IMG/VR virus record: IMGVR_UViG_3300031813_000014
Direction: 5' to 3' (one strand)
Source: an uncultured virus (IMG/VR IMGVR_UViG_3300031813_000014)
Lineage: Duplodnaviria > Heunggongvirae > Uroviricota > Caudoviricetes
DNA: 20,000 nucleotides
This document shows positions 2-7,003 of the stretch, piece after piece (position 1 is the first letter of the stretch; each line of letters starts with the position of its first letter). Both the position numbers and the translations under genes were made by a program. The notes under the pieces were generated by a model. The model ran no database searches, had not been told where the DNA came from, and worked only from the letters and a program-made list of their open reading frames with translations.

Positions 2-469
2 GCTCATCCCTTGGTGAATGGTGGTAACAACGCCAACACTCCTTCTACTCCTGCTGATTTGAACGAGACTTCTCTTGAGAATGCCGTTATTCAGATCGCT
101 GCATGGACAGATGAGCGTGGCCTCTTGATCGCCGCTAAACCCAAGAAGTTGGTTGTTCCTCCTGCACTCATGTTCGTTGCAACTCGTTTGCTCGACACTG
201 AATTGCGTGTTGGTACAAACAACAACGACATCAATGCAATTAAAAACAATGGTGCCGTTCCTGAAGGTTATACAGTTAACCACTTCTTGACCACACCTAA
301 TGCTTGGTTCTTGACCACAGACGTGCCAAACGGACTTAAACACTTCGTTCGTACACCTCTGCAAAACAGCATGGATGGTGACTTTGACACTGGTAACGTA
401 CGTTACAAGTCTCGTGAGCGTTACAGCTTCGGCTGGTCAGATCCATTGGGAATCTACGGTTCCTATTGA
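2..469 (+). CDS. Major capsid protein, Mu gpT-like (HK97 fold), C-terminal part; 5' truncated by the window edge
   Basis: Frame is open from base 2 (AHPLVNGG...). Motifs DLNETSLE, DERGLLIA.KP.KL.VPP.L, NHFLT..NAWFL.TDVPNGLKHF.R and DGDFDTGNVRYK.RERYSFGWSDP are typical of gpT-like phage capsid proteins. Confidence 0.9.
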   Translation, partial: AHPLVNGGNNANTPSTPADLNETSLENAVIQIAAWTDERGLLIAAKPKKLVVPPALMFVATRLLDTELRVGTNNNDINAIKNNGAVPEGYTVNHFLTTPNAWFLTTDVPNGLKHFVRTPLQNSMDGDFDTGNVRYKSRERYSFGWSDPLGIYGSY

Positions 470-473
470 TCGG

Positions 474-502
474 AAAGGGGCCCCCAAAAGGGGCCCTTTT
501 TT
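474..502 (+). terminator. Rho-independent terminator after the capsid gene
   Basis: GGGCCCC(478-484)-CAAAA-GGGGCCC(490-496), extendable by AAAG/TTTT and followed by T6 (497-502), immediately after the TGA at 467-469. Confidence 0.85.
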
Positions 503-506
503 ATTG

Positions 507-536
507 TTGACAACACTAAAAAATAGTGTATATTGT
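507..536 (+). promoter_or_regulatory. Sigma70-like promoter with an operator-like inverted repeat in the spacer
   Basis: Perfect TTGACA at 507-512. Candidate -10 boxes are TATATT (529-534, 16-bp spacer) or TATTGT (531-536, 18-bp spacer). ACACTA-N5-TAGTGT palindrome at 513-529. Confidence 0.65.
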
Positions 537-540
537 GAGT

Positions 541-616
541 GTCTGGGATTTTTTTCTCTTGTTGCGACTGGCCCAGCAGACGATGCAACGATTAACAAGA
601 GACTTTTGCATAAGGA
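541..616 (+). ncRNA. Structured leader RNA, probably the Mu-gpT-DE motif (Mu-like gpT downstream element)
   Basis: Three interleaved complementary pairs: CTGGG(543-547)/CCCAG(572-576), TCTCTTGTT(555-563)/AACAAGAGA(594-602) and ATGCAA(583-588)/TTGCAT(606-611). Core GACTGGCCCAGCAGAC. It lies directly downstream of a gpT-like gene, the defining context of the Mu-gpT-DE motif. No covariance-model search was run. Confidence 0.65.
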
Positions 617-622
617 ATTATC

Positions 623-1345
623 ATGGCACGTTCCACGTTTTCTGGCCCAGTCATATCTGGTGACCAACGCTTTGGCCCCCTCCGTAACATCGGTTACACA
701 GTTTTAGAGCAAGACGCTTACATTGACTTCGCTGTTACCACAGGTAGCGGTACACCCGGTTATGCTGGTGGTTCTGGTCAATTCGTCAACAGCAACACAA
801 TCCCCAATTTGCCTGGTCAGCTTTATACACCCCAAGCTGGTGTGTTTAGCGCTTCTGGCCCCACAACTGCAAATCCTCCCGCAGATACAGCTACTAACGT
901 CTATCGTGGCGTTATCATGTATTTGCCACAGAATTGCCAGATTTTTGACTTTATTGTTGACATGCCAACAGTAATGTCAGGTATTACAGCAACTCCTACT
1001 GGGGTAAACCTGTATATTTCTAGCGGTATTACAGCAAACGGTGGTACTCCCACATACGCTTCTGTTGCCCTTGGAACGACAACTACAGGTTCTGCTGGTC
1101 GTCAAACCGTTACATATTCAGCAACTCAGTTGAATAACCTGTTGTCTACAACTCAAGACATCCAGAACCCCCAAGTTGGTACACAACCCGCATGGTTTTC
1201 TCAGTTGGTATTCACAGTTGGTATTGCTGCAGCATCTGGATTGACTGCTCCTACAGCAGGTCAATTTAATTTTGTCGTACGCTATGTACAACCTGATTTG
1301 AATATCGGTAACACTACAACTTACCCCTACGGTAACTTCGATTAA
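623..1345 (+). CDS. Putative virion protein (capsid decoration or head accessory candidate)
   Basis: 240 aa, SD AAGGA at 612-616. The N-terminus MARSTFSGPVIS recalls proteins encoded directly after gpT-like capsids. T/G/A/P-rich with beta-sandwich-like composition. Confidence 0.6.
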   Translation: MARSTFSGPVISGDQRFGPLRNIGYTVLEQDAYIDFAVTTGSGTPGYAGGSGQFVNSNTIPNLPGQLYTPQAGVFSASGPTTANPPADTATNVYRGVIMYLPQNCQIFDFIVDMPTVMSGITATPTGVNLYISSGITANGGTPTYASVALGTTTTGSAGRQTVTYSATQLNNLLSTTQDIQNPQVGTQPAWFSQLVFTVGIAAASGLTAPTAGQFNFVVRYVQPDLNIGNTTTYPYGNFD

Positions 1346-1350
1346 TTTCC

Positions 1351-1373
1351 TGGGGGCTTCGGCCCCCATCTTT
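1351..1373 (+). terminator. GC-rich hairpin with a cUUCGg tetraloop; weak terminator or mRNA-stabilising stem
   Basis: TGGGGGC(1351-1357)-TTCG-GCCCCCA(1362-1368), followed only by TCTTT. Confidence 0.7.
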
Positions 1374-1392
1374 GAATTTAAAGGAGATTAAT

Positions 1393-2172
1393 ATGGCAAA
1401 TGCTGCTTTATCGTCAATGACCCGCATGGGTAAATACGAGCCATTTGACTTGCAAGTTGCACGCGGGCAAGTTTATGGGCACTCAACACTGAGTCTTTTT
1501 GGGTATCAACCTTCAGTTGGTACAACTTCTATTCCCATTTGGGAAAATGCAACAACATATACCTACCCAGTTTCTGCTGCCGCAGTGACTATAGCGAGTA
1601 GTTCTGCATCTGATGTAGCACCTGCAGCCGTGCTGATTAATGGTTTGGATGCTAACTTTAACCCCATTTCAGAAGTTATTACGCTTACTGGTCAAACAGG
1701 CGTGGTAACTACAAAGTCGTATTTGCGGGTCAACAGTTTGTTTATGGTTGGCGTGGCCTCGGGTCAAACGTCAAATGTAGGTACGATTACTGCTAAAAAT
1801 TCAGGCGGAACTGCGACTTACGCACAGATTAATGCGGCTATTGGTAAAAGCCAAAGCACCATTTACACTGTTCCAGCAGGGTACAGTTTTTATTTGGATC
1901 TCGCAGAAGCTAATACTTCTAACAGCTACACAGGTAGTACGATCGTTACTTACAGTGTGCAGGCTACCAATAATGTAACTGGAGTTACGATTAACGTTTT
2001 GCAACAACCTTTTGTCTCTATTTATACAGTTAATAGAGCTTCTGAACCATTTGTTTATACAGAAAAAACTGATGTTCAATGGCAGTTGAAAGCTAGTACA
2101 GGCACAATTGCTGCTGGTATTGTTATTGCTGGTAAGTTGATTAAGAATTCTGCTGATGCAGGAAGCACCTAA
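1393..2172 (+). CDS. Conserved phage protein, probably structural and beta-rich
   Basis: Start moved from the track's 1372 to ATG 1393 because AAGGAG (1381-1386) precedes it. Contains EPFDLQVARGQ, FGYQPSVG and INGLDANFN..SE.ITL.G; T/S/A/V-rich. Confidence 0.65.
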   Translation: MANAALSSMTRMGKYEPFDLQVARGQVYGHSTLSLFGYQPSVGTTSIPIWENATTYTYPVSAAAVTIASSSASDVAPAAVLINGLDANFNPISEVITLTGQTGVVTTKSYLRVNSLFMVGVASGQTSNVGTITAKNSGGTATYAQINAAIGKSQSTIYTVPAGYSFYLDLAEANTSNSYTGSTIVTYSVQATNNVTGVTINVLQQPFVSIYTVNRASEPFVYTEKTDVQWQLKASTGTIAAGIVIAGKLIKNSADAGST

Positions 2173-5784: not shown

Positions 5785-6044
5785 TGGGTAAGTTTAGCAA
5801 AAAAATGGGCGGTAAAGAAGTTGGTCAAGCCGACGTCTATGCCAAGCCCCATACTTCAGGGGGTAAAGACCTTGAAGAAAAAGACATTGGTTTTTCTGTT
5901 GAAATGCCAACCCGTAAGAACTGGACACCTTTGAACGGTACAGTTTCTATTGGGCACATGGACAACATTGAATCAACCGGTATTGAGACTCGCGGTAACG
6001 GTGCTGCTACCAAAGGCCGCATAGCTAGAGGACCGATGGCGTGA
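5784..6044 (+). CDS. Small phage protein ending in GI.TRG.GAATKG..ARGPMA
   Basis: 86 aa, coupled at both ends (TAATG and GTGA). Confidence 0.75.
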   Translation: MGKFSKKMGGKEVGQADVYAKPHTSGGKDLEEKDIGFSVEMPTRKNWTPLNGTVSIGHMDNIESTGIETRGNGAATKGRIARGPMA

Positions 6045-7003
6045 CTTACACTGAACTTGTAACTGCAATACAGTCGTACACTGAGAATCAGTTTCCAGTC
6101 GTCTATTTGGCGGATGGAACAACTGAGTCTACTACTTCGCAGATTAACAGGTTCATTGAGCAAGCCGAACTAGGTATTTACAACACGATTCAGTTCCCCA
6201 GTTTAAGGTCTAGCAAAATAGGTACTTTAACTGCGGGGGTTGGGTATTTGTCTTGCCCAGATGACTTTTTGTCAGTGTATTCTTTGGCTGTATATCCAAC
6301 CACAGGCCCTAATGCCAACACCTATACGTTTTTAATTAATAAAGATGTTAATTTTATACGTGAGGCTTACCCAAATACTGGGTCTCTTTACTATTCAATG
6401 CCGCAGTACTATGCGCTGTTTGGCCCCCAATCAAATAATATTAACGAGCTTAGTTTTATTCTTGGGCCAACTCCAGATCAAGCGTACGCTACTGAGTTAA
6501 ATTATTACTACTACCCGCCATCAATTATCCAAGGTAATGTGACATCTTTGAATTTGGTCACGGCGGGTTCGGGGTACGTAAATGGAACTTATTATGACGT
6601 GCCTCTCACAGGTGGTAATGGTAACTCTTGTATTGCGATTATAAAAGTAACAGCCGGTGCTGTTGCATCTGTGACAGTTACCAGCGGTGGAGCTTTGTAT
6701 ATTGTTGGAGATACGTTGTCCGTAGCTTCATCATATATTGGAGCCAGCGGTTCAGGTTTTACCGCAAGTGTAATTAGTGTTGGTAATGCAACGGGTACTA
6801 GCTGGCTTGGGGATAATTTTGACTCTGTACTTTTGTATGGTTCTTTGGTTGAAGCATACACTTTCATGAAGGGCGAACAAGATTTGCTTGCTTTGTATGA
6901 GACTAAGTACAAAGAATCCCTTATGGAAGCTAAACGTCTTGGCGATGGCCTTGAAAGACAGGATGCCTACAGGTCTGGTCAATATCGTCAACCTGTTACC
7001 TGA
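6041..7003 (+). CDS. Second head-tail adaptor / tail tubular-like protein, with an internal Gly-rich beta domain
   Basis: GTG start with SD GAGG. MTYTELV.AIQSYTEN, FIEQAE..IYN.IQFP.LR, YL.CPDDFLSVYSLAV, KDVNFIREAYP, GPTPD..Y..EL.YYYYP and SWLGDNFDSVLLYGSLVEAY.FMKGE.D. Confidence 0.65.
   Translation: MTYTELVTAIQSYTENQFPVVYLADGTTESTTSQINRFIEQAELGIYNTIQFPSLRSSKIGTLTAGVGYLSCPDDFLSVYSLAVYPTTGPNANTYTFLINKDVNFIREAYPNTGSLYYSMPQYYALFGPQSNNINELSFILGPTPDQAYATELNYYYYPPSIIQGNVTSLNLVTAGSGYVNGTYYDVPLTGGNGNSCIAIIKVTAGAVASVTVTSGGALYIVGDTLSVASSYIGASGSGFTASVISVGNATGTSWLGDNFDSVLLYGSLVEAYTFMKGEQDLLALYETKYKESLMEAKRLGDGLERQDAYRSGQYRQPVT

Follow-up and report, generated by a model that had tools for sequence, protein, structure and literature searches.

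A conserved, doubly pseudoknotted leader RNA upstream of a probable capsid cement protein gene in uncultured phages

RESULTS

Locus and position of the element

The DNA analyzed here (the window) is a 20,000-nucleotide (nt) stretch of the uncultured virus record IMGVR_UViG_3300031813_000014 (Caudoviricetes), and the element under study consists of about 70 bases within positions 541 to 625 of its sense (+) strand. The element lies between the 3' part of a Mu gpT-like major capsid protein gene and a gene for a protein of 240 amino acids (aa), and it ends directly against the Shine-Dalgarno (SD) sequence of the latter. A first-pass annotation, made from the letters of the window, had proposed at this place a doubly pseudoknotted leader between a promoter and the ribosome-binding site (RBS), and the comparisons described below supported this arrangement. 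The coordinates of all features are given in Table 1. Together, the promoter, leader, 240-aa gene, and a GC-rich hairpin after the gene form a self-contained cassette.

Table 1. Features of the locus, in window coordinates
Feature	Position	Strand	Remarks
Major capsid protein gene (Mu gpT-like), 3' part	2..469	+	PF10124, 27.1 bits (cutoff, 20.1); phrog_371 "major head protein," E value 1.6e-8; stop codon TGA 467-469
Intrinsic-terminator-like hairpin after the capsid gene	474..502	+	GC-rich; stem 478-484/490-496, loop 485-489, T run 497-502; read from the sequence
Sigma-70-type promoter	507..534	+	TTGACA 507-512, 16-nt spacer, TATATT 529-534; 11/12 consensus, best in the window
Predicted transcript start (purine) and 2-nt 5' overhang	541..542	+	From the fixed -10-to-element spacing
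S1 5' strand (CTGGG), 5' tail	543..547	+	Pairs with the mH1 loop
5' linker, variable	548..554	+	3-9 nt in relatives
S2 5' strand, long-range helix	555..564	+	10 pairs here
Junction J1 (CGA)	565..567	+	Last base is a near-invariant A
Hairpin mH1	568..579	+	Stem 568-570/577-579, loop 571-576; CCCAG 572-576 is the S1 3' strand
Junction J2 (A)	580..580	+	"A" in 112/134 and "TCA" in 19/134 distinct elements; final A in 134/134
Hairpin mH2	581..590	+	Stem 581-582/589-590, loop 583-588; ATGCAA is the S3 5' strand
Junction J3 (AT)	591..592	+	First base is a conserved A
S2 3' strand	593..602	+	
3' linker (CTT)	603..605	+	CTT end in 72/81 distinct elements from protein-found loci
S3 3' strand (TTGCAT), 3' tail	606..611	+	Pairs with the mH2 loop
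SD sequence AAGGA	612..616	+	Directly abuts S3; ATG at 623
240-aa protein gene, probably jelly-roll capsid cement or decoration protein	623..1345	+	AlphaFold2 model, structural neighbors
GC-rich UUCG hairpin (GGGGGC-UUCG-GCCCCC), weak terminator or 3' stabilizer	1351..1368	+	

Pairings and fold

Three complementary pairs were read from the sequence, i.e., CTGGG with CCCAG, TCTCTTGTT (555 to 563) with AACAAGAGA (594 to 602), and ATGCAA with TTGCAT; all three, and their interleaving, had been described in the first-pass annotation and were found exactly there. Comparison of relatives resolved five helices rather than three, designated S1, S2, mH1, mH2, and S3. The long helix S2, extended by a tenth pair (G564.U593), and the two short hairpins mH1 and mH2 form a three-way junction. 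Both hairpin loops are 6 nt long; in S1, the 5' tail is paired to five bases of the mH1 loop, and in S3, the 3' tail is paired to the complete mH2 loop.

The pairings were compared with 2,000 dinucleotide-preserving shuffles of positions 541 to 625 (85 bases). A perfect helix of at least 9 base pairs (bp) occurred in 10 of the shuffles, and the interleaved set of 5-, 9-, and 6-bp helices occurred in none. The nested-only energy fold of the leader was unremarkable (z, +0.38; 127 of 200 shuffles folded equally well or better), a measure that is uninformative here because the structure is pseudoknotted.

A competing pairing of GTCTG (541 to 545) with CAGAC (577 to 581), which had been put forward as an alternative to the first stem, exists in the window but is not conserved. 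It had no contiguous pairs in 24 of 136 distinct sequences, namely those in which mH1 was changed on both sides while mH1 itself remained complementary. The competing helix appears as a by-product because the trinucleotide CTG occurs in both S1 and mH1. A separate 5-bp complement (GTTGC/GCAAC, 561 to 565/585 to 589), between the mH2 loop and the 3' end of the S2 5' strand, was present only where that strand reads ...TTGTTGC.

Occurrence with one gene family

Relatives were collected by protein and by DNA. A search of viral contigs with the 240-aa protein returned 557 relatives, from which 80 loci were fetched; 80 further loci came from a search centered on distant family members, and one (L347) came from a single very distant relative. 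The 161 protein-found loci were chosen without regard to the RNA and contained 81 distinct element versions. In addition, a DNA pattern built from the 3' half of the element yielded at least 120 loci.

The whole element lay directly upstream of the gene in 154 of the 161 protein-found loci, and the other 7 were cut by the contig end; all 154 relatives with enough upstream DNA carried the element before the 240-aa gene. In the reverse direction, a homologous gene lay directly downstream in 117 of 120 pattern-found loci among the matches listed, with 2 loci cut and 1 chance match lacking the remainder of the element. With a covariance model derived from the alignment, one copy was found in the window (86.5 bits) and one strong copy in each of five phage genomes (58 to 67 kb; 97 to 100% complete), and the element was still recognized in the distant relative L347 (59.3 bits). 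It is thus found on the sense strand, over the region from the predicted transcript start to the RBS of one gene, and co-inherited with that gene, and the strictness of this link fits the cis-acting role on the downstream gene that the first-pass annotation had favored.

For 138 loci, 700 nt or more of upstream DNA was available, and the distance to the capsid gene was counted in these. The capsid gene ended within 200 nt of the element in 72 of these loci and did not in the remaining 66, in most of which the capsid homologue ended several hundred bases further upstream (6 of 60 listed had no capsid match). Because the element stays with the 240-aa gene when the capsid gene is distant, it belongs to the downstream gene and not to the tail of the capsid gene. 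In two such loci that were read, the gap between the capsid gene and the element is filled by a gene of about 200 aa (L014, 603 to 1193; L211, 485 to 1096), the 3' end of which overlaps the -35 box and runs into the promoter. This gene matched phrog_1035 "endonuclease VII" (E value, 3e-15) and, weakly, phrog_144 "HNH endonuclease," with no Pfam match; it looks like a free-standing homing-type nuclease beside very conserved DNA. On the other side, 123 loci had more than 1,500 nt of downstream DNA, and in only 44 of these did the gene after the 240-aa gene come from the same family.

No match to the element was found in the cultured-phage collection, where similarity was restricted to the capsid gene and pointed to Planktothrix, Synechococcus, Pelagibacter, and Roseobacter phages. 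The bacterial genome collection gave 63 pattern matches, 2 of which were real by the covariance model; these lie on contigs of metagenome-assembled genomes (MAGs) assigned to Nanopelagicaceae (L311) and Burkholderiales (L335) and are probably phage contigs binned with bacteria. The protein of one relative was filed under a Ferrovaceae MAG. One distant protein, P0134, was not found in the genome or metagenome contig collections and was found in viral contigs.

Covariation and conservation

Pairing and covariation were evaluated in a structure-blind MAFFT alignment of 105 distinct sequences. Paired cells amounted to 96.7%, compared to 86.6% in shuffles and to 29 to 43% when the partners were slid by one to three columns. 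Covariation across relatives, named in the first-pass annotation as a check on its proposal, was present: both-side changes occurred in 13 of 27 pairs (S2, 8 of 10; mH1, 2 of 4; mH2, 2 of 2; S1, 1 of 5), and none of 500 shuffles attained the covariation score of 0.329 (0.145 in shuffles). The same figures were obtained when 100 of these sequences were aligned by fitting to the model. Pairs are therefore kept by compensatory changes beyond what the controls produce, as in a structured RNA.

Among 134 distinct elements, S1, mH1, and S3 were complementary in all 134 and mH2 was complementary in 128. S1 was CTGGG/CCCAG in 124 elements and CTAGG/CCTAG in 10, with no one-sided changes seen. The mH1 stem was CTG/CAG in 112, CCC/GGG in 16, CCT/AGG in 3, and CCG/CGG in 3, all of which are complementary, and the mH2 stem was CG/CG in 113, TG/CA in 11, CA/TG in 4, and CG/AG in 6. 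S3 was ATGCAA/TTGCAT in 130 and TGCAAT/ATTGCA in 4, the latter being a register shift compensated on both strands and all being complementary. Most rows came from the DNA pattern, and because this pattern fixed the S3 strands, the invariance of S3 in the pattern-based counts is partly selection; in the protein-found set, which is unbiased in this respect, the two types were present in 77 and 4 of 81 versions, respectively. S2 measured 7 to 13 bp in 132 of 134 elements, with 74 distinct 5'-strand sequences.

Among 105 sequences, the junction-closing S2 pair (564/593) was G.U in 81, A.C in 19, and G-C in 3. G.U and A.C are look-alike wobble pairs, and their exchange suggests a specific local geometry or a metal site. 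Because G.U pairs are frequent, the sense strand is the folding strand. An A was retained in each junction strand, element length in relatives was held to 65 to 72 nt, and approximately 35 bases were invariant across at least 134 distinct versions recovered. Base 548, which follows S1, and base 571, which is unpaired and opens the mH1 loop, also varied together: of 134 distinct elements, 76 combined T at 548 with C at 571, and 43 combined A with G, a pattern that may mark a tertiary contact or merely two clades.

Shine-Dalgarno contact, promoter, and 3' hairpin

The AAGGA that had been noted directly after the last strand was confirmed, and one of AAGG, AGG, GAGG, or AGGG followed S3 directly without exception (134 of 134 distinct elements); the spacer between the SD sequence and the ATG, by contrast, varied in length and sequence. 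Upstream, 138 of 159 distinct sequences contained a TAnnnT hexamer (a criterion chosen for this analysis), which ended 8 to 9 nt before CTRGG in 123 of the 138. Because this -10-to-CTRGG spacing is fixed, the transcript start is predicted to be the purine that precedes S1 by two bases, which would place the beginning of the fold at the very 5' end of the transcript, at about position 541.

A GC-rich hairpin lay within 90 nt past the stop codon in 95 of 99 distinct relatives, with at least five T residues in the next nine bases in 61 of these. On the hairpin upstream of the promoter (474 to 502), weak look-alikes of Rfam small RNAs and terminators were aligned; a simple terminator scan did not list it.

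Comparison with Rfam families

The first-pass annotation had likened the element to the Mu-gpT-DE motif and had proposed a covariance-model search against Rfam. In Rfam 15, no family matched the 20-kb window at the gathering threshold. At E values up to 10, the sole sense-strand match inside 541 to 625 was a 10.2-bit fragment of a long noncoding RNA (E value, 4.8), and no riboswitch, ribozyme, leader, or exoribonuclease-resistant RNA (xrRNA) family matched the element.

The Mu-gpT-DE motif corresponds to Rfam RF03012, according to the available text of its description (PMC7657543); the model has 53 positions and a gathering score of 49 bits. Both are phage RNAs between a Mu gpT-like capsid gene and the start of the next gene, and the element does lie downstream of such a capsid gene (PF10124, 27.1 bits). 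RF03012, however, did not match 541 to 625 even at E values up to 10, and its best score, 12.8 bits compared to the required 49, was obtained in a 100%-identical record at the place equivalent to window positions 1348 to 1395, outside the element. The Mu-gpT-DE consensus is also simpler than the element: within 53 nt, one outer CCU/AGG pairing that includes the SD sequence surrounds a hairpin and is followed by the start codon, with no three-way junction and no loop-tail pseudoknots. In addition, no capsid homologue ended in the 200 nt before the element in 66 of 138 loci. Membership is refuted by the model score and is considered to have practically no chance of being correct.

The gap after the 240-aa gene (1348 to 1395), which consists of CCT, the GC-rich UUCG hairpin, and then AGGAGATTAATATG, is the best RF03012 look-alike in the window without being a member. 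Its design is akin to that of RF03012, in that the outer pairing takes in the SD sequence of the next gene.

The 240-aa protein

The 240-aa protein matched no Pfam or PHROG family, and a large protein search returned "hypothetical protein" entries only. The family is compact, with 97 representatives at 50% identity and 1,175 clusters at 90%. An AlphaFold2 model (predicted local distance difference test [pLDDT] score, 80.9; predicted template modeling score, 0.80) showed a beta sandwich with disordered ends. Foldseek comparison of this model to the PDB gave nothing at an E value of 0.001 or better, BFVD returned uncharacterized phage proteins only, and Atlas returned unnamed viral clusters only, plus a weak row carrying the Bbp16 family (template modeling scores, 0.36/0.53).

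With an exhaustive aligner, capsid cement proteins were 4 of the nine best structural neighbors, with middling Z values of 5.3 to 6.7. These were chains from cyanophage Pam1 (7eel_H; Z, 6.7; root mean square deviation, 3.4; 118 aligned), Ralstonia phage GP4 (8h89_J; Z, 6.6), Helicobacter phage KHP40 (7dou_4; Z, 5.9), and Bordetella phage BPP-1 (3j4u_H; Z, 5.3). On the basis of the model, the product is probably a jelly-roll capsid cement protein. Its predicted fold is a jelly roll, as in the known cement proteins, and as far as the available text of the two structural studies goes, cement and capsid genes have adjacent numbers in BPP-1 (bbp16 and bbp17) and GP4 (gp1 and gp2), while here the gene follows the capsid gene. 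The protein differs from the Bbp16, Pam1, GP4, and KHP40 proteins in size (240 aa compared to 124 to 155 aa), and no sequence-level match was found.

The N-terminal ~25 and C-terminal ~20 residues (encoded by 623 to 700 and 1270 to 1345) are the most conserved parts of the protein, yet they were modeled as disordered, with pLDDT scores below 50. The conserved N-terminal 25 residues carry R3, R16, and R21. These ends probably serve as arms that hold on to the capsid or another partner.

In the portions available, the BPP-1 study describes the cement protein Bbp16 and the capsid protein Bbp17 as the two most abundant virion proteins, with 7 + 7 copies per asymmetric unit (PMC3863775), and the GP4 study gives 540 + 540 copies of cement and capsid proteins, likewise the most abundant pair of the virion (PMC9698820). 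By analogy, the 240-aa product is expected to be very abundant, and a dedicated strong promoter and a special leader would fit because a cement protein is needed in such amounts.

Metatranscriptomes

Short near-identical pieces of the region were present in two lake-water metatranscriptome runs. In one such run, three contigs of different phage variants started at 572/573 and continued into the gene. Over 423 to 545, no cover was seen. Nothing is drawn from the contig starts at 572/573, since the variable base 571 gives a branch of the assembly graph there, and this branch probably explains them.

DISCUSSION

A structured leader of a probably new class

That the element is a real, conserved, cis-acting structured leader of the 240-aa gene is regarded as nearly certain. 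It is rated as a new class of such leaders with an unusual and very well supported architecture. No description of the motif was found in the literature searched, and it is not treated in the available portion of a 2026 genome-language-model preprint. The closest survey is that of Fremin et al. (2023), in which, according to the text accessible, IMG/VR contigs were screened for covarying intergenic motifs, including those within 25 bases of a start codon (PMC10690425). The survey lists 8,495 numbered candidates, among which the present motif may be included; it is not described in the accessible text, and no matching string occurred in the two searchable tables. The downstream-gene analysis of that survey, as far as its accessible text goes, used proteins with known domains, whereas the 240-aa protein has none.

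Proposed gene-specific control of translation

The reading preferred here, from sequence comparison, is that positions 541 to 611 act as the 5' leader of the messenger for the 240-aa probable cement protein and set the yield of this very abundant virion protein at translation initiation. The transcript would start at about 541 and fold during synthesis into the three-way junction, and with both hairpin loops tied to the tails, the 5' end of the messenger would be buried and a rigid invariant body would be set directly against the SD sequence. Translation initiation is the proposed target because the SD contact is unvarying, and a gene-specific rather than general function is proposed because the linkage to one gene is strict across proteins that have diverged by more than half. 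Protection from 5'-end-dependent decay could be a side benefit because the 5' end would be buried. The effector would be a protein that recognizes the invariant core, for which the unassembled product of the same gene is the simplest candidate; once bound, it would hinder the 30S subunit at the abutting SD sequence, so that synthesis would track consumption by capsid assembly. The whole proposal, including a protein effector, is given a probability of roughly 0.4. A protein-responsive (autogenous) operator is considered slightly more likely than a constitutive device.

Pseudoknotted translational operators are known from rpsO/S15, the alpha operon/S4, and T4 gene 32. Like these operators, the element is a pseudoknot in a 5' leader beside an RBS and tied to one gene, and the feedback of a protein product on its own translation, as in the S15, S4, and gene 32 systems, is the logic proposed here. 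The element has no sequence or model relation to these operators and differs from them in its three-way junction, its two loop-tail pseudoknots, and its position from the first bases of the transcript. The gene 32 pseudoknot is mentioned in the accessible part of the survey cited above (PMC10690425). Translational autoregulation by a head-assembly protein is described for the P22 scaffolding protein in the available portion of a preprint (bioRxiv 10.1101/2022.12.13.520362).

Several observations weigh against this proposal. Pairing of the 5' tail with the region from the SD sequence to the ATG was not favored (mean z, +0.44; 0.6% of sequences below -1.5), and in a nested-only model, accessibility of the SD sequence was 0.465, compared to 0.460 in shuffled leaders (native higher in 32 of 70). 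About 35 invariant bases, set against proteins that are more than half different, look more like a self-contained tertiary core, such as a ligand pocket, a catalytic center, or a mechanical knot, than like a typical protein operator. The strong promoter and the GC-rich 3' hairpin (95 of 99) that bracket the gene fit a constitutive high-output cassette equally well. The cement assignment is not firm because the Z values are middling, and a PDB sequence profile of the protein gave 0 matches. Finally, contigs from RNA libraries cannot show RNA ends, starts, or levels. The first-pass annotation had favored a translational switch, and for this form of control no conserved pairing that sequesters the SD sequence was found.

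Possible constitutive stabilization and enhancement

A constitutive device without an effector is considered nearly as likely as the autogenous operator, although it too is doubtful when taken by itself. The knotted 5' end would shield the messenger from pyrophosphohydrolase and from 5'-end-dependent RNases, and the rigid body would keep the SD sequence single stranded or stack on the SD:anti-SD helix, giving a stable, heavily translated monocistronic messenger. The element lies within about 2 nt of the predicted start and behind the strongest promoter in the window, the gene is followed by the GC-rich 3' hairpin in most distinct downstream regions (95 of 99), no conserved alternative fold was found, and cement proteins are needed in amounts equimolar to the capsid protein, as far as the structural studies consulted in part go. 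A simple 5' hairpin would suffice for such a task, however, which ~35 invariant bases and two pseudoknots exceed. Such a module would also be expected to spread to other abundant genes, e.g., the capsid gene, yet it is single copy and confined to one gene family.

Other possible readings

If the invariant core is instead a self-sufficient machine, its boldest form would be an RNA akin to the nuclease-resistant RNAs of eukaryotic viruses and the first of its kind from a bacteriophage. In this form, the junction and the two loop-tail pseudoknots would knot around the 5' end of the messenger and defeat host 5'-end-dependent decay, and the adjacent SD sequence would be handed to the ribosome. In xrRNAs, two pseudoknots are added to a three-way junction: one engages the 5' end, and the other connects the loop of a hairpin with the 3' tail. 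At the level of secondary-structure topology only, the element is alike in its ~70 nt, three-way junction, 5'-end pseudoknot, and loop/3'-tail pseudoknot, with the xrRNAs of flaviviruses and plant viruses serving as the comparison, to the extent that the cited text was available (PMC12397905). The 5' tail pairs with a hairpin loop in the element and with the junction in xrRNAs, and the element adjoins an SD sequence at the 5' terminus of a messenger of the bacterial type, whereas xrRNAs lie in the 3' untranslated region. A ring around the 5' end is a feature of xrRNAs, while the element is known here from its secondary-structure topology alone. In the literature searched, no paper joined xrRNA, RNase J, and phage. 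The self-sufficient reading as a whole is considered unlikely.

A new riboswitch or ribozyme class would belong with these self-sufficient readings. In a riboswitch, the invariant junction and pseudoknots would form a small-molecule pocket that alters ribosome access to the SD sequence. The conservation is of the kind typical of aptamers, with the covarying, variable S2 (74 versions) around an invariant core, and the length is tightly bounded (65 to 72 nt). An expression platform or a conserved mutually exclusive pairing was not found, however, the gene encodes a structural part of the virion and has no link to metabolism, and no Rfam riboswitch family matched at E values up to 10, which together make this reading improbable.

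Still less credence is given to a promoter-proximal antitermination RNA that modifies its own polymerase, which would then read through the hairpin at 1351 to 1368 and later terminators of the operon. The put RNA of phage HK022 is an antitermination RNA of that kind. The position at +1 of the only strong promoter-like site before ~19 kb of same-strand structural genes, the terminator-like hairpins after the first gene, and the single copy per genome are what such an RNA would show. The invariable SD contact (134 of 134) would have no role there, and the link is to the 240-aa gene rather than to what follows it, the next gene having belonged to one and the same family in just 44 of 123 loci.

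A new class of self-cleaving ribozyme ranks marginally lower again. Small ribozymes have a similar size, a double pseudoknot, and many invariant bases, and the three RNA-library contigs begin at 572/573 within the element; no Rfam ribozyme family matched, a transcript starting at about 541 would leave nothing upstream to cut off, and the contig ends, which cannot show RNA ends, are probably explained by the graph branch at base 571.

Two further readings were rejected. A leader peptide from the ATG at 583 would have a frame that crosses S2, where compensated change is free, and in the common type no SD sequence precedes this ATG. Conservation at the DNA level (an operator or a homing site) as the main cause is at odds with the position-specific conservation, the covarying S2 in the middle of the element, and the G.U pairs that mark the sense strand.

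Implications

Little is known about structured leaders that govern the structural genes of phages, and the fold described here is a ready candidate for structure determination. The leader also offers an easy way to test how phages adjust the production of a capsid-equimolar protein to the demands of assembly. Should the core prove to bind a ligand, to cleave, or to resist nucleases, it would represent a new functional RNA class, and if it proves to be a constitutive stabilizer and enhancer, it would offer a compact, portable expression element. Because of its strict linkage to one gene, the element can also serve to mark a large group of uncultured phages from lake water.

Neighboring genes and minor observations

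Approximately 19 kb of same-strand structural genes follow the cassette, including two SU10-adaptor-like proteins. Two separate genes match the SU10 adaptor family PF24175 (4193 to 5167, 30.7 bits; 6041 to 7003, 69.7 bits), and the C-terminal parts of both products resemble tail fiber or baseplate PHROGs.

The 10 bases of mH2 (581 to 590) are identical to positions 962 to 971 of Escherichia coli 16S rRNA, presumably the loop region of helix 31 near the P site. The closing pairs differ, a 10-mer common to the element and rRNA is expected by chance in about 1 in 4 to 10 cases, and the identity is recorded as a curiosity only.

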